The notes under the pieces were generated by a model. It did not search any database, was not told where the DNA came from, and saw nothing but the letters and a program-made list of their open reading frames with translations. A DNA stretch of 64,000 nucleotides, taken from a virus. Positions within the stretch are counted from its first letter, which is position 1. Each line of letters begins with the position of its first letter. The stretch is taken from the IMG/VR virus record IMGVR_UViG_3300030019_000008; one strand, given 5' to 3'. The position numbers and the translations under genes are program-made. Below, piece after piece: positions 8,097 to 59,970 of the stretch.

Positions 8097-8498
8097 CTAA
8101 TTAACCAAATTGATGATCTTCGAGATAATGGTACCAGTGGTCTCGAACTGTTTGCAAAACGAATACTTTTCACCATCCTGCACCACAGTTGCAGAAAGCT
8201 TGATGTAGACCTTGCCGCTGTCATCGGTACAGCTGCAATCCACATCTGCACTGTCGAAGTGACGCGCCAGATAACGATGCATCACCGTTTGAATTTGTGT
8301 GCCAAGCGAGAGAGGGTCGTGTTGGTATTTAGCCAACAAAGCTGGAAGAGATGCGACGTTGCCTTGATAGAAGAAAGTCTGCGCCTCTTCACTGGCATAG
8401 AAATGCGAAATAAGAAAATCGCACTTTGTGGGAACGTCCTTTACCCATCCAGCTGCTGAAAGAGTAGGAACTGCTGCTGTAGGCATAATAAACCCCAA
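8097..8498 (-). CDS. conserved core hypothetical protein
   Basis: ~130 aa, operon-like spacing; start may be the internal ATG (MPTAAVPTLS). Confidence 0.7.
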   Translation of the reverse strand: MGFIMPTAAVPTLSAAGWVKDVPTKCDFLISHFYASEEAQTFFYQGNVASLPALLAKYQHDPLSLGTQIQTVMHRYLARHFDSADVDCSCTDDSGKVYIKLSATVVQDGEKYSFCKQFETTGTIISKIINLVN

Positions 8499-8504
8499 AC
8501 GAAG

Positions 8505-8539
8505 AAAAAAATAATGCCTCCCTTTCGAGAGGCATTATT
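8505..8539 (-). terminator. intrinsic terminator
   Basis: AATAATGCCTC...GAGGCATTATT stem followed by T-run on minus strand. Confidence 0.75.
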
Positions 8540-8541
8540 GG

Positions 8542-9174
8542 TTAGAGACTTGCGTCCCAGATACTGGTTGGATCACTCTCTCCGCGCTTGAGGAACATCT
8601 CAGCATTCGCCCAAGCATTCAGGATGTCGGCTTGCTCACGCACATCGAGCTCACGATCATCCTCAAACAGAGGATCATCCCACTGAGTAGCTGTCCACGT
8701 ACCATCCTCGTTGTCGACTGCAATGCCCTGCATCACACGGCGGTAATCGTAATGATTCTCGCCAATGTCATCCGGATGATAGTCAACATACGTCGTGGAG
8801 AAGCCATCACACAATTGAGCATGATAACGTTCCCGCAACGCAATGTTGCTCATCAGCCAGCGCTGCATCACAGGAGCAGCCTGCTGGATATCCTCCAGCA
8901 GATACAGCGGCTTGATGACGTCTTTTTGCATGCAGTGACCCAACTGGCTCACTACTGCTCTGAGGCGACGCATTGCCGTGGAGCTATTGAAACGATCATA
9001 AACCTCACGAGAACGTTCGAAGAACGACTCCATCCCCTTATTGAGCAGCGGGGACAGACTATCGATCCTTTCTTGTTGACGTTCCAGAAACTCTAATCCG
9101 GCATTTGTTTTCTCACCGAATACTCGGTAGCGAAAGACGTCATCGCCGCCTTCCACCAATCCGATTTCATACAT
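8542..9174 (-). CDS. conserved core protein (phiKZ gp59/Imp3-like by synteny)
   Basis: 210 aa, RBS AAGGAG; first gene after nvRNAP beta' exon 2. Confidence 0.6.
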   Translation of the reverse strand: MYEIGLVEGGDDVFRYRVFGEKTNAGLEFLERQQERIDSLSPLLNKGMESFFERSREVYDRFNSSTAMRRLRAVVSQLGHCMQKDVIKPLYLLEDIQQAAPVMQRWLMSNIALRERYHAQLCDGFSTTYVDYHPDDIGENHYDYRRVMQGIAVDNEDGTWTATQWDDPLFEDDRELDVREQADILNAWANAEMFLKRGESDPTSIWDASL

Positions 9175-9192
9175 CGCATCTCCTTTCGTTCA

Positions 9193-9375
9193 TTAACGCC
9201 CACGTTCAAACCACCTGGCAAGAGTGGCTGCAAACGGTTTGGGAGGCGATATGGACCGACTCAATTGCCTGGGTGCATCAACCGAGATGACGTTGCGGTG
9301 AGGCAGCATCGACATCATCTCTTTCGTGGTATACCTATCGAGCGTCATCATGGCTACCATCTGGTCTCCATCGAA
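9193..9375 (-). CDS. nvRNAP beta' subunit, exon 2 (60 aa, FDGDQMVAMMTLDRY...WFERGR)
   Basis: starts with FDGD, which completes the catalytic ADFDGD when joined in frame to exon 1; TAA at 9193-9195. Confidence 0.9.
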   Translation of the reverse strand, partial: FDGDQMVAMMTLDRYTTKEMMSMLPHRNVISVDAPRQLSRSISPPKPFAATLARWFERGR

Positions 9376-9768
9376 CCCAATGTCCAGTTAAGCCGCTCAT
9401 CCCTATTCGGGATTACCCTCTTAACCCGGTGCGATTCCTGGCACCCGCCCATGGCTTTCCCATGGGGGCAGATCATATCATCATCCCCTCACAATGAGGG
9501 GAGGCTTCTACTTGGCAGACGCTGTCCGCTACTCCCCGCTACGGGATGATCGTTGAACCTTACTCATATTTCGCTATCTCAGCGATACTTAGAGTCTTGG
9601 CTGCGTGATTACCCAATTCCTACCCTTTTTACCATACCCAGCTAGTTACCCTGGCCACTTACAAGTTTCCAATGTAAGTTTGGTAGATAGGACTCTAAGG
9701 ATGTCCCCGCAATTCAAAAGCATTCAATCCACCATTACTGATAGATAGGACCTATATTTAAGATGTCG
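9376..9768 (-). mobile_element. group I self-splicing intron without ORF (393 nt)
   Basis: exon 1 ends in U, intron ends in G; P AATTGCGGGG (9705-9714), Q AATCACGCAGC (9600-9610), R GTTCAACGATCAT (9546-9558), S GATGATATGATCT (9470-9482); P7 GATCAT/ATGATC; splicing restores ADFDGD. Confidence 0.9.
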
Positions 9769-11085
9769 ATCAGCGCCATACTGCTCTACGTTGAGGATCG
9801 AGATTGACATGGTTTTGTCTTCCAGGTCATCCTTGATCCCGGTGATGCGCACCAGCTGAATACTGCCTAAACCCAGAGTCGGATTGCGCTGCATGATCAC
9901 CGGTATGCCCTTATGCTTATCGGGATCATCCGGATACAGATACGAGCAATCAGACTCCTCGATCATCTCATCGAACAGACTCTTGACTTTCTCGATCACT
10001 GCCTTATCGGTAGTTCCGACGGCACTGTAGAGCAGCCCCAGTAGATCATTCGGGTTATACCCGCGTCTGGTGAGCTTGCTGGCCAGGTGAGTGCGCAGCA
10101 GCCCAATCCCCACACCCCATGGAATATGTATCTCGTCATACTGGTGAGGACCAGTGAGAGAGGAGATCACACACCGAGCTGAGAAGTCAGTTCTGCCACC
10201 ATAAACTTGCTTGCGAAAGATGCCCTCTTTCGGAGCAAAAAGCTTGTCGTACACTCCCTCGTAGTACTGAGAGAGCATGTCGATCGACTTGATCGTGCGC
10301 TCTTCACGCTGTCGCTGACTGAGCACACACGTCGGAGTATCGATACCAATCATCCCGGTAATGGCATCGATTGCAACGAACATCGTATTGTCGAGAAAAC
10401 GACCCAGGTTGGTGTTCTCGATCACCAACATTGTTCTATTCACCAGCGGGATTTGCTGGCTGAAAACCTTATTTCGATTCTCCTGGATCAGTTGATAGAG
10501 AGGATCAATCTTGTTGCGTTTCTTGATGGTCTTCAGATTGAAGAAGAACTCCATATAGGAATCGAAGTTCTCCACGAAGTTGTTGTAACCGCGCTTGAGT
10601 TTTGCATCCAGTATGGATTGCCAGTAAACCGGCAGATTCCCATCAGGAACATAGCTGGGCATCGTGATCCAGTGCAGCAAGGAAAAGCCCGCGCCTTTCT
10701 TGAAACGCCCCACCAACATCGACCAGATCAGTGGATTGATCATCGCAGTCACGCCACGCGGAGACCTGAGCCAGATGCGAGGTTGTAGATCATCGGTAGA
10801 TGACTCAACAGTCGTGTGACACACCGGACACTTAACACCGATATTGCTACCGGATGTCTTATCTCCGCGACTGTTAGTATATCCAGTCAGTCTGCCGCAC
10901 TGACAAGTGGGTGTGTTGGACAAACATTCGCTACCATCGTGCTGGGTGAATACCTCCTTACGGAATGCTTCTTTTGCTGCTGGAGATTCGTCCACGTCAT
11001 TGACATACTGAGGGTCTTTTACGAACCTCAGAAAGTCATCATCGTAGTCTGCTACTTCTCCATAAATACCCATATTCTCTCCCAA
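9769..11085 (-). CDS. non-virion RNA polymerase beta' subunit (phiKZ gp55-like), exon 1
   Basis: Zn-ribbon CQC...CPVC, KEGIFRKQVYGGRTDFSARCVI, RNPTL motifs; ends at ...QYGAD; spliced product 499 aa. Confidence 0.9.
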
Positions 11086-11160: not shown

Positions 11161-13032
11161 TCAGATATTGCCGCGGAAACGACCGAAGCCGGCCGGATTG
11201 CCGCCCGAGGTACGACGCTGGAAGTAGGAGTCGTTGCCACGGGTGCTCATGCGAGCATCGTCGAGGTAGTCGGCACCACGAGTGCGATCACGGCGGGCAC
11301 CGAACAGGCCGCTGGATTCCAGCGAGACGTCGAGCTTGGCCGCGAGCAGCGCTTCGGTCAGTGCGTTCAGGAAGTCGCGGTTGAACGAGTAGCGACGGGA
11401 CATGCCGGTGAAGCGCACTTCGGAGGCCAGCGCGCCTTCGATGATGGTGCGTTGTTCATCAGCACGAGCGATCACATCCGTACCACCGCCCTGGGTTGCA
11501 TCACCCCAGCGACCGATCTGGCCAGCATCGTTGGCACCGAAGGTGTTGCAGATGAAGGCATAGTCGACGTCACGGATATCGCGACGCACACCACCAGGAG
11601 CAACATAGTCGCCATTGAGCAGCGACAGGTTGTTCTTGGAGAGGATCGTGTGGTTCTTCTTGGCCTCGAACTTCGCCGCGAAGTTGCCCTTGGTGAGCTT
11701 TTCTGCAGCACGGAAGATCGCTGCTTGAGCCGAAGATTCACCTTCAGCTGCCATCGCGAACGGAGCCAGGAAGTAGGTATCCGGACCGCATTCGGCGATG
11801 TCGATCGAGACCACCAGGTCGTCGAACATGATGGCTTGCAGGTAATCCGCGAGATCGTCGTCGCGCAGATCCTTGCCCGTATCCATCACATAGCCGCCCT
11901 TCGGATCGTTGGTGACGTTCGCTTCGACGTTGAAACCACCGACACCATGCATGTCGCGACCGCCAGCCGGATTGGTGTTCGGACGGAAGCACTGAGTCCA
12001 GCCGTTGTCCACACGCAGAGCGTTGATGGCCGCCAGCGAGAGCAGAGTGCCTTCGAGGGAGGTCATCCGGGTATGGCCGAGCTGCGTGATGATGAAGTTC
12101 GGGATGTAGGTGCGGGTATCCCGGCGTTCAGTGGTACGGAAGGAGTTGTTCGGCTTTTCTTCCGGCGCATAGATCACGTCCATGTAGCCGCCAACATGAG
12201 CCAGAATCTTGCTCTGAGCACCGATGTCGTTCAGCGAGACATCCATCGAGTTGCTCTGACGATTCGGGATCGTGGACAGCACCAGACGGGTATCGGTACG
12301 GACCGGCACCCCGACAGCGTTCTCGGTGTTCGGCTGGTTGAACAGCGCGCGCACTTGCAGAGCGCGTCCGGCAGTCAGGTCGTCGATGGACACACGGACG
12401 AGACCGGCAGCTTGAGCGAGGATGGTGGCGCAGGCAGTCACGGCATTGGTGAACAGCGCATCGGTGCGCGGCTTCGAGAGCTCGAATCCGGCCGGAACGA
12501 CTTCGGCGTCAGCCTGCACAAACGACGTGTGCGGGTAACGAACCGACAGTTCCTTCTGGATGAAGGCAATCATCTTGCCGTCGAAAGCTTCGCCGGCGTG
12601 ACGCTTCCAGATGATCGTTTCCGGGCCCTTGTTGATCTGGGTCTCGACAGCGCCGAACGAGTCGCCGATCAGCAGAGTGTGGAACGAACCGGCCGCACCC
12701 TTGGAGGTCTTGAGGAACGCCAGGATGACGAGGATCGAAACCGTGATGCCCTCGCTGTTCGCGCGGTCGAACGTCAGGAACGAGTAGTCGTAGTAGACGT
12801 TGTTGACCGTGCCTTCGAAGTACTTGGTGGCGGCCTCGGAGAGACGGACCAGCGTGTCGCCGCTGGCGGTGTCGCCGGCCGGGTTCAGCAGTGCTGCGTA
12901 GTTGATATTGTCCAGGCCTTCAGCCTGACCGCCGAAGTTCGGACGGGCGGATTCAGCGCGGGGGCGGGGAGCCTCGGCATGCTCTTGGCGGCCGTTGTTC
13001 CCGTTCTGGTTGGTATCGTCAACGATGCTCAT
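11161..13032 (-). CDS. chmA: chimallin, major phage nuclear shell protein
   Basis: 623 aa, disordered termini, immediately upstream of nvRNAP beta', strong codon bias, early promoter upstream; matches chimallin size and position. Confidence 0.85.
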   Translation of the reverse strand: MSIVDDTNQNGNNGRQEHAEAPRPRAESARPNFGGQAEGLDNINYAALLNPAGDTASGDTLVRLSEAATKYFEGTVNNVYYDYSFLTFDRANSEGITVSILVILAFLKTSKGAAGSFHTLLIGDSFGAVETQINKGPETIIWKRHAGEAFDGKMIAFIQKELSVRYPHTSFVQADAEVVPAGFELSKPRTDALFTNAVTACATILAQAAGLVRVSIDDLTAGRALQVRALFNQPNTENAVGVPVRTDTRLVLSTIPNRQSNSMDVSLNDIGAQSKILAHVGGYMDVIYAPEEKPNNSFRTTERRDTRTYIPNFIITQLGHTRMTSLEGTLLSLAAINALRVDNGWTQCFRPNTNPAGGRDMHGVGGFNVEANVTNDPKGGYVMDTGKDLRDDDLADYLQAIMFDDLVVSIDIAECGPDTYFLAPFAMAAEGESSAQAAIFRAAEKLTKGNFAAKFEAKKNHTILSKNNLSLLNGDYVAPGGVRRDIRDVDYAFICNTFGANDAGQIGRWGDATQGGGTDVIARADEQRTIIEGALASEVRFTGMSRRYSFNRDFLNALTEALLAAKLDVSLESSGLFGARRDRTRGADYLDDARMSTRGNDSYFQRRTSGGNPAGFGRFRGNI

Positions 13033-13172: not shown

Positions 13173-13407
13173 AAATCTAGAATCCGCTGTATCTGAGCTT
13201 TACATGTTATACCTACCATCAGTAAAAAAATCACCGATAAGTGAAAAACGGATATAACGCGTATGACCTAGAGTAGCAGCTTCTTTCGAAGCGACTACTT
13301 CTCATATACATACTATATCGTGTATTTTTTTACATCAGCTATGGGTAGGGATAATATGACTGCCTTAACCGGGCTACTTTCCTATTAACCTACAACGTGA
13401 GCGGAAC

Positions 13408-14520
13408 ATGTACGAAATCTTTAATGTGGAGCCTGTGCATCAGACAGCAGTGCCTACACCCTCACGATGGAACTTCATCAGAACACGTTTGAATGCTAAC
13501 CTGGATAAAGCTGTGAGCTACTATCGTCACAGTAAAGAGTTCGTTAGCTCCCAACACATATTGATCAAGCTACTATCGGGTATGGGTGTTCCTCATTCCC
13601 TGGAGATCTCTCGTTATTACGATAACGTTTGTCAAGTAGCTCTCAACCGATCGATGGCTCTCGGAATGACGTCATCTATATTTAAGGGTCGTCTATTCCA
13701 CGGTGACTTCTACGGTGATGCGAGTCGAGAGATCATTATCGGTTACTCCGATAGCTTTGATCCGGTCTGGGCAAATGACAACTGGGAAGATCTGTCTCCT
13801 ATAACTATCCTGAGATGTGCGCATAGCGACATCTCTTTCATGCCTCCGAATGGAATCCGACATCATTCGGAAACTGGTGTGGCTGTGATCGCTATCAATA
13901 TCCCATTGCTCGCTGTTCAGTATAGAGCCTTCAGGAATAAAGAAGCTGAGATTGCTGCTGTCTCAGGATGTGGAGAACGAGGGATCAACAACTTCGTATT
14001 CAATTACCCCCTGACGAATGCGCTAGGGTCGCAATTGGATTATGAGCTGTTCAATCACCTGGATCATGTACTGAGGGATGAAGCAATAGGCGTATCAATT
14101 TCAGCCAAGCATCCATTCTTCATGTCGGGATTTGAGGATGAGCTAAGAGAGTATCATGAAAAGCTTATAGATATACTCAGCAATTCAAAAGCTGACTTCT
14201 ACAACATGATGCGCTCGATCCCGATGATCAATGTCGACAATTTGTTTGATGCATCGTATCTCCCATCTTCAGTTCCGACCAGACAGATTGAGTGGGCATT
14301 CTCTGTTGCCAGAATACCGACAATTGAGTTTCTGTTCAGGCTGTCGAGTGAATTTGCATTAGTGCGTAACTCCATGGAAGTTGGGAAGATTGCTCGCTAT
14401 GCAAACATGTCCTTGAGAAACTCTTTGCTTAACACCATGCTGCCTGCCGATCTTTATAGAGACTTGGCTGATAGCTACAACTACATCAATAAGATCGCAA
14501 AAGGTGAGAATGATGAATAA
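13408..14520 (+). CDS. conserved virion structural protein (phiKZ gp52-like by synteny)
   Basis: 370 aa, divergent from chimallin, between chimallin and DNA polymerase. Confidence 0.6.
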   Translation: MYEIFNVEPVHQTAVPTPSRWNFIRTRLNANLDKAVSYYRHSKEFVSSQHILIKLLSGMGVPHSLEISRYYDNVCQVALNRSMALGMTSSIFKGRLFHGDFYGDASREIIIGYSDSFDPVWANDNWEDLSPITILRCAHSDISFMPPNGIRHHSETGVAVIAINIPLLAVQYRAFRNKEAEIAAVSGCGERGINNFVFNYPLTNALGSQLDYELFNHLDHVLRDEAIGVSISAKHPFFMSGFEDELREYHEKLIDILSNSKADFYNMMRSIPMINVDNLFDASYLPSSVPTRQIEWAFSVARIPTIEFLFRLSSEFALVRNSMEVGKIARYANMSLRNSLLNTMLPADLYRDLADSYNYINKIAKGENDE

Positions 14521-15958
14521 CGTGGAAACTGGCAGCGTGTCTTTGGAAGCCATGGTTGCTCGTGCAGAAGCAATGTATAGCCTGCTGGGTAAACTCGAGG
14601 CTGAGAGATCGGTGACGATGGATGGTGTGGCTGCTGTGGAATCCTTTTGCCCAAATGGCAAGACGATGGATACGTTTTTCAGTTCGGCTCCTGCGGCTCA
14701 GAAGCACAGAGCAGCCCTGGAGGAACTCAGTAAGGGCATCATTGCTTTGATTGCTACTGCTGTACTGGCAGTGATTGCCACCATCATGAAGATCTACAAG
14801 TTCTTCACGACGGGTAGTTCAAGCGGTAGCGGGTCTGGTGGCAACACTATCGATATCAAGAATGTTGATGATGACGGACACATCGTCAAACCTGAACAAG
14901 CAATTGAGCGCGTGGTCGAGAAGATCGATCCTCAAGCCAAAGACTTTCAGACTCTGGGTCAGATGGCTACTCCGCTGAGCAATCATCCCGCTGATGAAGG
15001 TGTTCAGGGCGATGTGCTCAAGCGCATTGAAACTCTGGCTCTGAGCATTGCCTCCAGGTCACCCACGAGCATGAAGAGGACAAACTGTATCACTGCCGCA
15101 CATGCCAGTCGTACAGTCATTGGAGAAATCCTTCTCGGTAAAGACATTTACTATTCGCTCTATTTCAAGGAGTCTCAGAAAACCGGTATCGTGCCCGCAA
15201 CAGGCGACGTTCAGAAACTCGTTGCATATTTCGATTACTGGATCAAGTTCCTCAAAAAGGCAGATGCTGATCTGCGGGAATACAAGAACCTTGATGCAGA
15301 GGTTGCGGAACTACACAGAGAAACAGCCAGGGTTCTGAATCTGCACGATGGTCAAACTCTCAAGGGAGTTCTTGCTGACATCGACATGCTAATAAAAGAC
15401 TCCAAGATGAATGCAGATCTCAAGCGTGGTCCTGTGTCATCTCAGGACGACGTCAGAAATTTCATTCTGAGGGGTCCTGGTGGCGTTGTATCGGCTCCCG
15501 CAAGGTTCTTGCGTCAGTTCCGCATAGCTGACATCCAGTCTTCCTTCATCGCCATGGAAAAGCACGTGAAGCCCCTGCTCAAGCTCGTGAGTACTCTCAA
15601 AACCTACCAACAGGCATATGAAGAGTTTGTCACGAATGAGAGCGAGGATGGCATGCACACTGTCAGACCCACTGTCAGGGGATTGAATCTGACTGAACCC
15701 ATGATCGCTGTCCAGTACATCAGTAAGGAGCTTAGCGTTTACGTCTATGCTTACAACGTGTATGTGGAGGAAGTTTCTTCTTTCCTTCAGACGTACCATG
15801 AGCTTTGCAAGATTGCTCTTCTTCATCCCGAGGAATTCATCAAGTCCACGGATATGGATGCAGCGAAGAAGCTCATCGATGACCTGCGTGATTCGATGAA
15901 GGTTACCCACAAGCTCATTAATGAATTCAGTTCACTTCCCAAGCTAACCATGAGCTAA
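14504..15958 (+). CDS. putative internal head/ejection protein
   Basis: ~484 aa; S-L-E and A-L-E prohead-protease-type sites followed by hydrophobic helix (IIALIATAVLAVIATI) and GS linker. Confidence 0.55.
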   Translation: MRMMNNVETGSVSLEAMVARAEAMYSLLGKLEAERSVTMDGVAAVESFCPNGKTMDTFFSSAPAAQKHRAALEELSKGIIALIATAVLAVIATIMKIYKFFTTGSSSGSGSGGNTIDIKNVDDDGHIVKPEQAIERVVEKIDPQAKDFQTLGQMATPLSNHPADEGVQGDVLKRIETLALSIASRSPTSMKRTNCITAAHASRTVIGEILLGKDIYYSLYFKESQKTGIVPATGDVQKLVAYFDYWIKFLKKADADLREYKNLDAEVAELHRETARVLNLHDGQTLKGVLADIDMLIKDSKMNADLKRGPVSSQDDVRNFILRGPGGVVSAPARFLRQFRIADIQSSFIAMEKHVKPLLKLVSTLKTYQQAYEEFVTNESEDGMHTVRPTVRGLNLTEPMIAVQYISKELSVYVYAYNVYVEEVSSFLQTYHELCKIALLHPEEFIKSTDMDAAKKLIDDLRDSMKVTHKLINEFSSLPKLTMS

Positions 15959-15972
15959 TCCGGCAAACTGAT

Positions 15973-16012
15973 CCTCTACTACCTCTAGGCGCCAGCCTAG
16001 AGGTAGTAGAGG
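15973..16012. terminator. bidirectional hairpin between convergent genes
   Basis: 18-bp perfect stem, 4-nt loop. Confidence 0.75.
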
Positions 16013-16016
16013 CGGA

Positions 16017-18155
16017 TTAGTAATAATCCGAGTACAGTTTGATGTGCTTTCCTGCTGGAGATGAGAACACTCCAAATGATTCAAGAATCAAAGTAAAAAC
16101 CTTAGAGCAGTCCGCCACAATCTTCCTCACATTGATGATCCGGAAGATTTCATCAGGGATACCCTTGGAGTCAACAATGTTCATGGGTAGATAAAACGTC
16201 TTGAGCATCCGCCCATTGCGTTTTTCCAACCATGCAACCATGCGCTCTTTGAGTTCCTGATCTTCAATGCTGTTGAGCCATGCATTGACTTGTGTCTTGT
16301 TCTCCATGCTTGTATTGACCTTAATTGCCGCATAAGGCGGAGGAGGTGCTTCCCCATGCTTGGGACCAAACACTTCATTCCAGAAGGTGTAATGCATGTA
16401 GGGAGAACGTTCAGGATCAAGTGTGTATGAGTCAGGACCTTTGATCTGTGCTCCTCGGAAGTACTCCAGAGAACCACTTCTCAAAGATTTCAGAATCACA
16501 CGTTCTTCATCAGCAATCTCAGTCAGAATCTGAGACAGGTACAGATCCTCACCGCTGATAATCTTCTTCATTGTTCCGATCATCAGCTCCTTGGCCTTGG
16601 CATTGATTGCCGGAGGAGCATTGGAAGACTTCAAGTGAACACCCTTGATTTCTTCTTTGAAGTCAGTATAGACGTTACCTTCCCGACAACTGATCAGAGC
16701 ATAGTAGTGCTTGGCCACCTGTGTCGTCACAAAGACGTCGAACTTGAATTCGTTCTTCATGGCGATCTGGTGCAGGCGCTTCTTTTCCACACCAATGTTC
16801 GAACTCATCATTGCCAGCAAGTGAACAATCGCCTGAGATGCAACGAAGATCATTGTTGCTGCGACAGCGTTGGCCTTGGAACCGAAACAGATCTTACCGA
16901 AATACCACTTCACCCAATCCTGCACTGTGAAGATAGTGGAGTCAGTGTCAGATGTCACGGCTGCATAACGCACACTGGTAGGGAACCATCCTAACGATGC
17001 CGGTACGTTGCTAGAGGTTAGCAGCGCACTGATCAGATCACCATATTCCAACACAGTCTTGTAGGAGTTTTCCATAGTCGATGCAACAATCGCATAAACA
17101 TCGGGATGTTCCTTTTCCATCTTCGACCACTTGATACCGCGGGTCAAGCTCTCACATATCTGAACTGCCAAAATGCGGTAGTCTTCATTGATGTTCTTGA
17201 AGATAGAATTGGGGTCAGGGTGTTGAACATCCACCAGTGTGGACAACTTGGTAATGAATCCACGCATCAGACCATCATTGTAGAGCGTCAGGCTATAAAG
17301 ATCCCCGGTATAGACAAAAGCTGCTCTTTGAAGAGGGGTCAACTTGGAGATCAGAATGCGGATACGTTCGATTTCCTTAGGCAATCTCCAGTAGTGGTTG
17401 GAGCCACGGGTGATAACTGCCATCGCATCATCCACGCTGGGGTAATGCAGGTCGTACTTACTCATCACTGCCGAGAACTTCTCATAGTCGGTATGATTGA
17501 TGATGGAGATGACATTATTGCGAACGATGTCAGGAGACCAGTAATGGCGATTACCTGAGAGCATCTTTTCATTGTTCGCATTGCCATACCCGGATGTGCA
17601 CCGGCATGTGGACGTCAGAGTGCTGTGAGCTGTCTTGTTATAGACAGGAGTCGAATTACTCACATACGCACCGCTCAGTGCATTGTTGAAGATCTTCGCA
17701 AAGGTCTGCTCATTCTTCTTGTATGTGGCCTTGATTACATCTTGGTCCATCTCGGCTTCGAACATCTCTTTCTTAGCACGAGACCGGCGCTTCACATTCT
17801 TGTCGATGAAGTCAACGTGAAGAGATTGCTTCTTCCCAGGATTGACATACGTCGTCAGAGTGGGTGCAACGATGTCTGCATCCTTGATGGCATCGCGAAG
17901 ATACTGAGTCAAAGGAATCTCAACCTCAAACCGATCTTCGAAGTTGGGACGATCCGTGCATCTGACTATTGGGTCAACCATACCCAATGCGCCACCAGGC
18001 CTTACCGTTTTCTTGACAAAGGCTGCGCACTGCCCGTAGTCTTTGCCAGTCATGACCGATAAGTACATGGCGGCATCATCGACGTAATGCTTGACGACAT
18101 CCAAATCGCGTCGATATGCGTCTGCCTCCAGAACAAATGGATTCGCTGCAGTCAT
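16017..18155 (-). CDS. family B DNA polymerase, polymerase-domain subunit (phiKZ gp50-like)
   Basis: KIFNNALSG (motif B), SDTDS (motif C), KHYYA, KGVHLK. Confidence 0.88.
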   Translation of the reverse strand: MTAANPFVLEADAYRRDLDVVKHYVDDAAMYLSVMTGKDYGQCAAFVKKTVRPGGALGMVDPIVRCTDRPNFEDRFEVEIPLTQYLRDAIKDADIVAPTLTTYVNPGKKQSLHVDFIDKNVKRRSRAKKEMFEAEMDQDVIKATYKKNEQTFAKIFNNALSGAYVSNSTPVYNKTAHSTLTSTCRCTSGYGNANNEKMLSGNRHYWSPDIVRNNVISIINHTDYEKFSAVMSKYDLHYPSVDDAMAVITRGSNHYWRLPKEIERIRILISKLTPLQRAAFVYTGDLYSLTLYNDGLMRGFITKLSTLVDVQHPDPNSIFKNINEDYRILAVQICESLTRGIKWSKMEKEHPDVYAIVASTMENSYKTVLEYGDLISALLTSSNVPASLGWFPTSVRYAAVTSDTDSTIFTVQDWVKWYFGKICFGSKANAVAATMIFVASQAIVHLLAMMSSNIGVEKKRLHQIAMKNEFKFDVFVTTQVAKHYYALISCREGNVYTDFKEEIKGVHLKSSNAPPAINAKAKELMIGTMKKIISGEDLYLSQILTEIADEERVILKSLRSGSLEYFRGAQIKGPDSYTLDPERSPYMHYTFWNEVFGPKHGEAPPPPYAAIKVNTSMENKTQVNAWLNSIEDQELKERMVAWLEKRNGRMLKTFYLPMNIVDSKGIPDEIFRIINVRKIVADCSKVFTLILESFGVFSSPAGKHIKLYSDYY

Positions 18156-37896: not shown

Positions 37897-37963
37897 ATTC
37901 GTTAGGTCTGGTGTCTCTATCCTCCTTGTTCACGTTGAGACATACTAGTTGACCGAAGGGGTT

Positions 37964-38281
37964 TCACTGCAAAATTCTGAAATGCTCGCTAATCGAGACC
38001 GTCTCCTCTTTGGGTACGGTAATCTCGCTGCGCTTGTCAAAGAACGGATTGTAGACAATCATCTTGTCCGGCTCTCGGGTCAGTGGCGACGCATTAACCC
38101 TGAGCGTGACTTCAGTCTTGTCATTCAATCTTGCCTTGAGGTAGGTTTTGTGCACCTCAATGGATGTGACTGCTGAGTAAAGTTTTTTGGTTGAGAGAAA
38201 TGCCATCAAAGAGCTGGCAAATCTGGCTCTGTCGATACGGCTTTTGATCCACAGTTCTGGAAACCTGAATCGCACACTCAT
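37964..38281 (-). CDS. hypothetical protein
   Basis: 105 aa, AGGA RBS. Confidence 0.65.
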   Translation of the reverse strand: MSVRFRFPELWIKSRIDRARFASSLMAFLSTKKLYSAVTSIEVHKTYLKARLNDKTEVTLRVNASPLTREPDKMIVYNPFFDKRSEITVPKEETVSISEHFRILQ

Positions 38282-38518
38282 GATGCATTTTCCTATATAC
38301 CGGCATAACCTCCACAGGCATTTCTACCTGTGGAGGAGTGCCAACAAAAGACGACGGTTGAATGTGGAGATCATCAAAGATAATCTCTCGGTTCTTCCAA
38401 TTTTGTCGAGGTCAATTCTTTCAAGCAGTCAGATCCGTATCTGGAGAGGTAGGTGGGGAATCTCTCTTGAATGATTTCTCTCATACTATACAGCAAATTT
38501 TTGACTCGTCTCATAATT

Positions 38519-38535
38519 GTAATATGTGACTGATC
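38519..38535 (-). promoter_or_regulatory. early-type promoter
   Basis: GATCAGTCACATATTAC. Confidence 0.6.
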
Positions 38536-38551
38536 AAAACCACATCACAGC

Positions 38552-40362: not shown

Positions 40363-40463
40363 GGCTGAGTTTCCTTTCGTTACATGTAGGTATGTGTGTG
40401 AAAATGGGTACTGCTACTCTGCATGGGATACTGGGTAGCAGTTATTTTTTACTGCAAAGCTTG

Positions 40464-46765: not shown

Positions 46766-47212
46766 CTAGAGATTAATATTGGCGAAGTGAAGGCTGCTGA
46801 TTGGGTAGCATATGAAGAACTCATCAGCAGTAACGCACTCGGCCTGCTTATCGAGCCAAAGCCCCATGACCAGTTCAGCCATGGCTAGTTTCACATAGTC
46901 GGCTTGCCTGCCAACGATGTTGAACTCAAGCACAGACTCGCTGGTTTTCATTGCCTTGTATTTGAAAGTGGTTTCATCGTGTTCTTTTTCATAGAACGAG
47001 ATGTATCCCAGTTTCTCAGCAGTGGCGGCATCGCTCACATACAGAGAACTACTGATGGAAACACCAGAACGACCAGACGGGCAAACCACATCGCGACTGT
47101 CATCATCACAGCCGTGATTGAGAACATAAGTGCCACCCGCTGCATCCATAGTCATCATGCAAAACTTATCCATTACCCTGTACTCCTTTTTCTTCAAGAT
47201 GTTTTTTGGCAA
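46766..47212 (-). CDS. hypothetical protein
   Basis: ORF; probable start MDKFC after AAGGAG. Confidence 0.65.
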   Translation of the reverse strand: MPKNILKKKEYRVMDKFCMMTMDAAGGTYVLNHGCDDDSRDVVCPSGRSGVSISSSLYVSDAATAEKLGYISFYEKEHDETTFKYKAMKTSESVLEFNIVGRQADYVKLAMAELVMGLWLDKQAECVTADEFFICYPISSLHFANINL

Positions 47213-48469: not shown

Positions 48470-48748
48470 TTACGCCGAGTTCTTGAGATGAAGTTCGTAG
48501 TAGTGATTCACCTTTTGTTTCTTGGCTTCAACTACGTCATTGTCGCACCTATCAATCAGACCAAGTTCAATGCACTGCTCGATGGCTGCATAGAGGTGAT
48601 TGATTTCTTCAGTGAGCTCTTCCCGATTCGTGTTACCGGTAGCCGGGTTGATAGACCTCGGCCCGAACTCCATCATCTTGGCAGCTGCTTTACCAATCTC
48701 GTCTGACTCTTCACGAAGTTTGTGAAGGAAGAATTCTTGCTTGTTCAT
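48470..48748 (-). CDS. MazG-like NTP pyrophosphohydrolase-fold protein
   Basis: KLREESDEI...K...NREELTEEINHL pattern; start revised to MNKQEF with AGGA RBS. Confidence 0.6.
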   Translation of the reverse strand: MNKQEFFLHKLREESDEIGKAAAKMMEFGPRSINPATGNTNREELTEEINHLYAAIEQCIELGLIDRCDNDVVEAKKQKVNHYYELHLKNSA

Positions 48749-48771
48749 TTGAGTTATTCCTATTTGACGGC

Positions 48772-48806
48772 AAAAAAGAATCACCAGGGGAACAATCCCC
48801 TGGTGA
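48772..48806 (-). terminator. intrinsic terminator closing the ncRNA
   Basis: TCACCAGGGGA/TCCCCTGGTGA 11-bp stem then TTCTTTTTT on minus strand. Confidence 0.8.
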
Positions 48807-49600
48807 CCCTACCCCACCACACCACTTCAACAGCACTCTCGGATTGAAGTCAGGTCGGCTACCCGACATTCTCACCGGCAATGTTGTCATTCCGACATTC
48901 ACTACTTGTAGTGCAGGCTTTTAGCATCTACCAATGCGCTCTCTCAGAGAGTATTAAGTGCACCTGCTCACTATCCCAGACTCAGGCACTGGGATATTCC
49001 CGTACTCTGGATGTCTAGACACCCAACTGTCCCACTACGACTTTAAAGTAAGCCTGAGAGAACAAGAGTGGGATTCTTAGATCTCTCAATGTGGTGCCGA
49101 ACCATGGCTATTACTATCTCGACCCCCAGTGCAATCCATTTACCAAATGCCACTGACCAGATGTTAGTCAGTACCACGTCGATGCGGTAGTGGGATTGCT
49201 ATAGGCTCTGTTAGCCTGCCTATCGCCTAAGATATATGCAGCGGCGGTGTCTCTACGCTGGCTTTTAACCAACCTGGAAGTGACGCTGCACCATCATGAG
49301 CGAATCTCGAAGTTATTATCGGATCGATCCTCAAAAAGAAGACCTCACCGGCAATAACCTGCTACTGTTTCTGCCAAAGGCTGATCACAGGTGTAATGCT
49401 AACGGTATAGAGACCGCTGGCCCATTGTTCACTCATCACTCCAATGCTCAGACATCGCGCCCCCAACGGCGCAAGTGCAACATTTCTGGTTTCCCGTATT
49501 GCACCGCATCCTAAGCAATGGCAGTGAGACAGCGCCTGTTAGTGAAAGGACAAAAGCCTAACAGGCGCTTATGAGTGTTCTTCCTTCAATGGATAGCTCC
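48775..49600 (-). ncRNA. candidate large structured non-coding RNA (~800 nt), class unknown
   Basis: no credible ORF in a gene-dense region; more than 12 helices including long-range pairs and a loop pseudoknot; G-U pairs favour the minus strand; promoter-like motif and terminator at ends. Confidence 0.7.
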
Positions 49601-49622
49601 ACCGAATAATTTTTTACTGAGG

Positions 49623-49868
49623 TCAATCGTAATCGATCTCGACACTACATTCTTTCGCGACTTGGGCAAGGGTATTGTCCATGTCCTTAATGCGGTTTCC
49701 TGTCCTGGTAAGATTGCTCTTCACCACCACATCATGCATGCACATCGTTGCATCGATCTCATTGCGTTCTTCGACATAGTTCTTCATCGAGCAAGAGATT
49801 GCTATGACAGTGAGTACACAGAAAGTGAGTGCTGCGATAGTGGTGGCACTGAAACGCTTAGTCGTCAC
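49623..49868 (-). CDS. small membrane/secreted protein
   Basis: 81 aa, N-terminal hydrophobic helix, GGAG RBS. Confidence 0.65.
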   Translation of the reverse strand: MTTKRFSATTIAALTFCVLTVIAISCSMKNYVEERNEIDATMCMHDVVVKSNLTRTGNRIKDMDNTLAQVAKECSVEIDYD

Positions 49869-52572: not shown

Positions 52573-52649
52573 GTGTAACTCCAGTTGTTAATTGGTTTTG
52601 TGATGTGGCGTGCTACTCTGCACATAAGTTCTATGCGAATGATATTTTC

Positions 52650-52901
52650 TTACTTGCCCTTAATGAGTTCGGTCAGTTTCACTACTTTTACATTGCGAGC
52701 TACGTACGTTATGCATTCACAGTTAATGCAAGGCTTGGTCATATATCCGCGCACATCGTTACGAGCAAACGAAGGTCTCGCATACCAGTAACTGACAACG
52801 TGACCACATGAGTGCATGACTGAGAGAGTGGACCCAAATACTTCTTCAGATCCAGAGATCTCATACGGGTGGTCTTTATCAACCACTGGGCAACCCCACA
52901 T
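52650..52901 (-). CDS. small hypothetical protein
   Basis: 83 aa, overlaps upstream gene end. Confidence 0.45.
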   Translation of the reverse strand: MWGCPVVDKDHPYEISGSEEVFGSTLSVMHSCGHVVSYWYARPSFARNDVRGYMTKPCINCECITYVARNVKVVKLTELIKGK

Positions 52902-59714: not shown

Positions 59715-59970
59715 TACTTTTGAGTATAGTAGTATTTTTTTACTTGAGTATAACTATCTTCTGCATCGAATACTACTAGCACTGTTTACTCTTATGTAAG
59801 CTAGGAAAATGTCGTTGCCTAGGCTAACCCCTCTGTCTCGGTATGTCTCTCTCGAAGCATATATCGAACCGTAGGTGAGATAGGTATGAGCTCTCTTCCC
59901 GTGAGGAACGAACTAATCTTCTTTTGACTCTAAGACGGCATAGATAGCTATTTTGGGGGCGAAGCCCCCT

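Follow-up and report, generated by a model that had tools for sequence, protein, structure and literature searches.

We identified a candidate large structured RNA gene of about 820 nt on the minus strand of a 64,000-nucleotide viral sequence (IMG/VR record IMGVR_UViG_3300030019_000008; hereafter the window), and we hold with moderate confidence that it is a discrete, new orphan RNA gene. The stretch lacks coding potential, is bounded by a promoter-like motif and an intrinsic terminator, and has a strand-specific excess of structure. Speaking for a discrete RNA are the size of the gap that holds it, the largest in the window, a shared and oriented motif at its 5' end, a terminator on the minus strand only, a folding z-score of -6.5 and a repeated module. 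That the RNA is transcribed, stable and functional we infer from these features of the sequence.

The candidate occupies a gap of 874 bp (48749-49622), which extends from the ATG of a 92-aa gene (48748) to the stop codon of an 81-aa gene (49623). By a crude gene call the window is 89% coding, and this is its largest non-coding gap. The next largest gaps measure 655, 550 and 549 bp, and the 549-bp gap contains a group I intron. The stretch is non-coding. We found no ORF of at least 90 aa in 48785-49574, and all six frames of the gap are interrupted by 11-24 stop codons each, with all three stop codons frequent. All six frames score below zero in codon-usage log-odds (-0.13 to -0.20 bits/codon), whereas seven neighboring small genes range from +0.06 to +0.34 in their frame 0. 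Public gene callers left the gap empty on all contigs carrying the sequence. Coding potential, which a structured non-coding RNA gene should lack, was thus absent, in agreement with the initial annotation, which had described about 830 bp without a credible ORF.

The predicted transcription unit and the related sites in the window are as follows.

49607-49618, minus strand: AT-rich promoter-like motif AGTAAAAAATTA, immediately following the stop codon that ends the 81-aa gene upstream
48771-49600, minus strand: the candidate non-coding RNA itself, about 820-830 nt, its presumptive ends placed by the motif and the terminator
48771-48810, minus strand: intrinsic terminator, with a 15-pair stem (48810-48777), a 4-nt loop and then a U-run (TTTTTT)
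13221-13232 (plus strand), 13323-13334 (minus), 40442-40453 (minus), 52643-52654 (minus) and 59733-59744 (minus): five further intergenic sites with the motif core (C/A)AGTAAAAAAATA

Transcription would start about 10-20 nt downstream of AGTAAAAAATTA, at about 49590-49600. The 64 kb were searched with at most one mismatch or a one-base deletion allowed. We found six sites of the AGTAAAAAATTA type, all of them intergenic and all oriented toward the next gene. The minus-strand copy at 13323 is located 290 nt upstream of the start codon of the gene for chimallin, in the intergenic region. We regard the (C/A)AGTAAAAAAATA motif as a candidate phage promoter class with a putative promoter function. 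In phiKZ, the chimallin gene (gp54) has early and middle promoter motifs, and one phiKZ motif is given as 'TACT followed by an A-repeat' (PMC8244752), the equivalence of which to AGTAAAAAATTA is not established. Among the copies of (C/A)AGTAAAAAAATA in the window, there is one divergent pair, between chimallin and the gene at 13408, and three copies have AGAGTAGCA 20-45 nt further on.

At the 3' end, the terminator stem has a pairing probability of 0.99, and no competing antiterminator helix was found in the ensemble. The terminator exists on the minus strand only, and the plus strand carries no T-run after the stem. Between its end and the ATG of the downstream gene lie 22 nt. Both boundaries had been proposed in the initial annotation, and both were recovered: a promoter-like AT-rich sequence with a putative promoter function at the 5' end (49618-49607, minus strand), and a terminator at the 3' end.

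Comparison with dinucleotide shuffles had been proposed as a check on the structure, and the minus strand folds beyond chance. Its minimum free energy (MFE) is -331.6 kcal/mol, with a z-score of -5.5 against 20 shuffles and -6.5 against 60 shuffles, the best of which reached -297. The plus strand of the same stretch gave z -2.2, and four coding controls gave -2.1, -1.2, -2.1 and +0.2. After regression of folding energy on GC content, the stretch was the top outlier of 107 windows. The excess is not confined to the strongest hairpins. Specifically, when the terminator and the 12-bp hairpin are left out, the core retains z -3.75 on the minus strand, as against -0.85 on the plus strand. The z-score is -6.2 for the 5' domain by itself (100 shuffles) and -3.8 for the central domain. 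In 150-nt windows, the minus strand is more structured inside the gap than outside (p 0.0017), whereas the plus strand is not (p 0.74).

The polarity given in the initial annotation, which relied on G-U pairs, agrees with the predicted folds: 40 of the 287 pairs in the minus-strand MFE structure are G-U, as against 15 of the 261 on the plus strand. In the predicted minus-strand fold, 69% of positions are well defined. The ensemble diversity is 116, compared with 205 +/- 49 in shuffles, and lies below all five controls; this is only about 1.8 standard deviations under the shuffle mean, which counts against a discrete RNA. Folding energy beyond dinucleotide shuffles on one strand, which is expected of a structured non-coding RNA gene, was found here, and other intergenic gaps of the same phage also reach z -2 to -4.4. 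Because these gaps have such values, and because the stretch holding an Rfam-confirmed group I intron has a z-score of only -1.2, a z-score is neither sufficient nor necessary. Taken together, the folding statistics make an RNA likely, as good but not decisive evidence.

The architecture of the candidate RNA comprises the following elements.

Local helices by complementarity: 49531-49542/49558-49569 (12 bp), 49475-49480/49499-49504, 49457-49461/49468-49472 and 49152-49157/49167-49172
Further local helices by complementarity: 48972-48979/48989-48996, 48913-48917/48963-48967, 48854-48858/48863-48867 and 48824-48830/48844-48850
Long-range helices by complementarity: 49181-49188/49503-49510, 49249-49255/49408-49414 and 49030-49038/49187-49195
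49428-49579, minus strand: 5' domain (RNA positions 44-195), a closing helix around a 12-bp perfect hairpin and a three-way region
49309-49361, minus strand: module A, in the order outer stem, CGG, UGA, 7-bp hairpin, GAU, CCG, outer stem
48829-48888, minus strand: module B, in the order outer stem, CGG, UGA, a different hairpin, AAU, CCG, outer stem

All eleven helices had been listed in the initial annotation and are 100% Watson-Crick at their coordinates. However, the predicted fold retains only one of the three long-range helices (49030-49038/49187-49195). Two other predicted long-range helices lie at RNA positions 318-337/707-726 and 389-405/636-651, counted from 49622. Perfect long-range complements of 7-9 bp are expected by chance in 850 nt (about five eight-mers by our estimate). 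Within the three-way region of the 5' domain, we found a GAAA-capped arm and a GC-rich hairpin, and the helix probabilities are 0.97-1.0. A covariance model of the 5' domain found no paralogue elsewhere in the 64-kb window.

The two modules share the 12-mer AUUGCCGGUGAG, which occurs in module A at 49355-49344 and in module B, 473 nt downstream, at 48882-48871. In both modules AUCCGA follows AUUGCCGGUGAG, after differing hairpins. Searching the 64 kb for further copies of AUUGCCGGUGAG or of its exact 11-mer gave none beyond the two modules. Both modules are predicted to form a 3x3 internal loop with G-A/A-G (or A-A) mismatches and a CGG/CCG clamp. The inner helices differ and the loop sequences are the same, and this is the only covariation-like signal of the RNA. 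The repeated module may be a binding or docking site.

The flanking genes and a complement in the 5' segment are as follows.

48470-48748, minus strand: downstream gene, encoding a 92-aa MazG-like nucleoside triphosphate pyrophosphohydrolase (phrog_4856, E 1.9e-14)
49623-49868, minus strand: upstream gene, encoding an 81-aa orphan with no Pfam or PHROG match
49578-49588, minus strand: 5' segment UGAAGGAAGAA (RNA positions 35-45), a perfect 11-nt complement of 48733-48723, which are codons 5-8 of the MazG-like gene

The stretch could be the structured 5' leader or attenuator of a MazG-like operon, which would start at the same motif and be mostly terminated, and in which the read-through fold would pair codons 5-8 and limit translation. 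We consider this explanation unlikely. It stays alive because the ATG follows the terminator by 22 nt and the MazG-like gene has no promoter-motif copy of its own in between; this arrangement counts against a discrete RNA, as it also fits a leader. The co-directional genes after the MazG-like gene are close together where checked. A leader would also account for the 11-nt complement. The duplex of UGAAGGAAGAA with the MazG-like codons has an energy of -14.5 kcal/mol, and in the read-through model seven of the 11 pairs form at p 0.85-0.95, closing the whole RNA, with the U-run pairing with codons 3-5. However, the 11-mer match may be due to chance; we estimate an expectation of about 0.01 when only the start region is counted and of about 0.1 when any 11-mer within 1 kb counts. 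Furthermore, 820 nt would be an extreme length for a leader, the terminator is predicted to be constitutive with no antiterminator helix to relieve it, and the MazG-like gene may have an internal promoter of another phage promoter class.

The order of promoter, structured RNA, terminator and gene in the candidate is also that of T-box leaders and of control elements of the phage HK022 put and lambda nut type. The candidate RNA is three to four times longer than these leaders. Unlike them, it has no antiterminator alternative and no cis-regulatory Rfam match.

The small RNAs mapped in phiKZ and 201phi2-1 by dRNA-seq and ONT-cappable-seq (PMC8244752, PMC11512511) are likewise non-coding units with a transcription start at one end and a terminator at the other, and some of them arise from premature termination upstream of a gene. 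These RNAs are shorter than 250 nt, in contrast to about 820 nt for the candidate, which shows no sequence similarity to any phage record. The published non-coding RNAs of chimalliviruses are also below 250 nt (PMC11512511, PMC13282480).

The phage carries a chimallin gene at 11161-13032 on the minus strand (PF25677, E 1.2e-23, 83.6 bits against a cutoff of 27). The description of the phage as nucleus-forming in the initial annotation thus holds by homology, since the label derives from this gene match. The tail sheath is at most 41% identical to those of cultured phages (Burkholderia phage FLC9 and Ralstonia phages RP12 and RP31). Metagenome contigs from JGI, ENA and Logan, the longest of 214 kb, carry the same sequence; samples with the phage include JGI 3300029923, 3300030339, 3300028743 and 3300030047, ENA ERZ27249812 and its relatives, and SRR8554885. 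Exact-protein look-ups returned ten and six contigs, all of one strain. The gap is 100% identical in all ten copies examined, and therefore no population signal is available from it.

We searched for homologues of the RNA in several collections. Neither the gap (blastn, distant settings) nor the surrounding 14 kb (megablast) matched any of 50,697 phage records. The nearest relative by tail sheath (74% identical) is an 18.6-kb Logan contig (SRR2043641), which ends short of the RNA region. Other tail-sheath relatives are at most 46% identical, the best in IMG/VR is 38% identical, and species genomes gave none. A single-module pattern had 23 matches in IMG/VR, all within long ORFs and with folds unlike that of the module. 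A two-module pattern had 76 matches in JGI metagenomes, none of them similar by blastn. The covariance model of the 5' domain, run against FLC9, RP31, RP12, FLC4-3B and the IMG/VR relative, reached only 18 bits (E 0.08) over half its length, and nhmmer against positions 1-30000 of RP12 gave no match. Homologues in Chimalliviridae, a search for which had been suggested in the initial annotation, were thus not found with nhmmer on this part of RP12 or with the covariance model on the relatives. Since no homologue was found in the collections searched, there is no covariation signal, which counts against a discrete RNA.

The lack of a homologue would also fit a non-functional spacer, that is, a long-decayed gene or a recombination leftover in a variable accessory region, with ordinary signals and chance structure. 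The surrounding accessory region consists of orphan genes, and the neighborhood shows strain-level indels. The 92-aa and 81-aa flanking proteins matched nothing beyond themselves among 5.8 billion proteins, and a 402-aa neighbor had no relative in 1.84 billion representatives, in phage records or in IMG/VR. Other gaps of the phage also fold better than shuffles. Nevertheless, we find this explanation quite unlikely. The genome is tightly packed and its other gaps do not exceed 655 bp, and codon usage showed no trace of a former reading frame, so that we do not regard the stretch as a decayed gene. The excess structure survives the removal of two strong hairpins, and does so on the putative transcribed strand only, and the duplicated module occurs twice in the same structural context.

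The stretch might also be a diverged member of a described family (GOLLD, ROOL, OLE, HEARO, a group I or II intron, RNase P or tmRNA). Its size class is that of GOLLD and ROOL, and it is borne by a phage with one or more group I introns. However, Rfam 15 cmscan of the 64 kb at gathering scores gave no match in the gap, and at E<=10 over 48600-49800 the only match was a chance one to mir-143 (19 bits). The models of GOLLD (RF01998), ROOL (RF03087), OLE (RF01071), HEARO (RF02033) and raiA had no match at E<=10, and those of tmRNA, RNase P RNA and 6S RNA had none in the gap. The group I model RF00028, which recognizes the P3-P9 catalytic core, finds the intron of the phage at 9448-9781 on the minus strand (55.7 bits, E 2e-11) and nothing in the gap. 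ARAGORN predicted neither a tRNA nor a tmRNA in the 64 kb, and the flanking genes are complete and separate. Membership in a described family is therefore largely refuted and very improbable. This also decides two points of the initial annotation: the absence of tmRNA, RNase P and intron hallmarks was confirmed by Rfam and ARAGORN, and the assignment to the GOLLD/ROOL type, taken as membership, failed at E<=10. The group I intron at 9448-9781 overlaps the 3' end of a 453-aa ORF (9724-11085).

GOLLD and ROOL are large ornate RNAs of bacteria, prophages and phages, and they form RNA-only multimers (PMC12286853). Together with OLE they come closest to the candidate in size and in their association with phages, although all membership features tested failed. 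The candidate resembles them in its size class (0.6-0.8 kb), in being phage-borne, in being a stand-alone gene free of ORFs and in its multi-domain fold. It differs from them in several respects. GOLLD is frequently associated with tRNA genes, whereas no tRNA was found in the 64 kb. Furthermore, the candidate has no covariance-model match and no known family members, and is located in a strictly lytic-type nucleus-forming phage rather than in a prophage.

That a variant code, frameshifts or small ORFs conceal a protein-coding gene is hardly conceivable: beyond short ORFs, the longest of which reach 72 aa on the plus and 44 aa on the minus strand, nothing in the gap suggests one, all three stop codons are frequent in each frame, codon usage is not coding-like, the neighbors use the standard genetic code, and no Shine-Dalgarno sequence was found in front of the ATG-started small ORFs.

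Other identities were tried and rejected. An intron splitting a MazG gene was considered because the MazG-like protein matches only positions 84-163, the second half, of the PHROG profile. However, the protein is complete at its N-terminus: the alignment with a homologue from a Yersinia phage starts at residue 1 and at the N-terminal end of that homologue. The upstream ORF encodes an unrelated protein. Since the flanking genes are complete and separate, there are no exons to join. A mobile element with 11-bp terminal inverted repeats was rejected, as one arm lies in native coding sequence. A DGR template or a repeat of another locus was rejected as well, with no copy found elsewhere in the 64-kb window.

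Returning to a discrete RNA gene, the following mechanism could be proposed. The phage's own RNA polymerase would start at the recurrent AGTAAAAAAATA-type motif, and transcription would halt at the strong intrinsic terminator. In the fold of the product, the 5' domain would be tight, long-range helices would close a large central domain, and an internal-loop module would be present in two copies. It may be a stable, trans-acting RNA in which the two identical modules would provide paired sites for a protein or for a second RNA copy, so that an RNA with paired modules could serve as a scaffold or a decoy. As a second activity, the RNA may bind the initial codons of the neighboring MazG-like mRNA by base pairing through its 5' GGAAGAA segment, which is predicted to be single-stranded. 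The roles of scaffold, nucleus-associated RNA and decoy are guesses. We propose only tentatively that the RNA is the first representative of a new class of large ornate RNAs. It would be made by the phage polymerase from a motif with a copy upstream of the chimallin gene, and hence perhaps early, would act through its two modules as a protein-free or protein-binding scaffold or decoy for host take-over or counter-defence, and would damp translation of the MazG-like gene by antisense pairing. A class would need a second member, and no homologue was found in the collections searched.

In the literature searched, chimallivirus transcript maps report only small RNAs below 250 nt, and phages and prophages are known to carry GOLLD and ROOL, whose function is unsolved. 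If the motif in common with the chimallin upstream region is a promoter, a 0.8-kb RNA would be a new player in the take-over phase of the phage. Such an RNA would matter in nucleus-forming phages because transcription is separated from translation there. Its value is limited for now, since it is an orphan in an uncultured phage.

We also made several observations on other loci. Two low-coding or structured regions were seen elsewhere in the window. The second largest low-coding gap (37897-38551, 655 bp) contains weak ORFs only, has z about -3.5 on both strands, and follows closely on the terminase block; RP12 likewise has unannotated gaps at this place. The minus-strand stretch 8401-9253 is the only other 853-nt window equally far below the GC trend (-54 kcal/mol, -3.8 standard deviations). 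It has a strong hairpin near 8510, and Rfam at E<=1 gives only a chance DUF805b match (15.6 bits, E 0.41). In RP12 (NC_041911.1), there are two unannotated, ORF-free gaps of 627 and 728 bp (16962-17588 and 15616-16343). In the first of these, perfect hairpins of 8-13 bp follow one another. Either strand gives z about -8.8, Rfam has no match, and neither nhmmer nor the covariance model of the 5' domain shows similarity to the candidate RNA.

Near the gap, the 81-aa orphan has an N-terminal hydrophobic stretch ending in AISC, similar to a lipoprotein signal peptide. Strains differ at a distance of a few kb downstream of the RNA, where about 266 bp (46862-47127) with a 135-aa gene are missing from one contig; the gap itself is invariant. 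In the same downstream region, a 6-bp indel in two contigs results in a 150-aa protein instead of a 145-aa protein.
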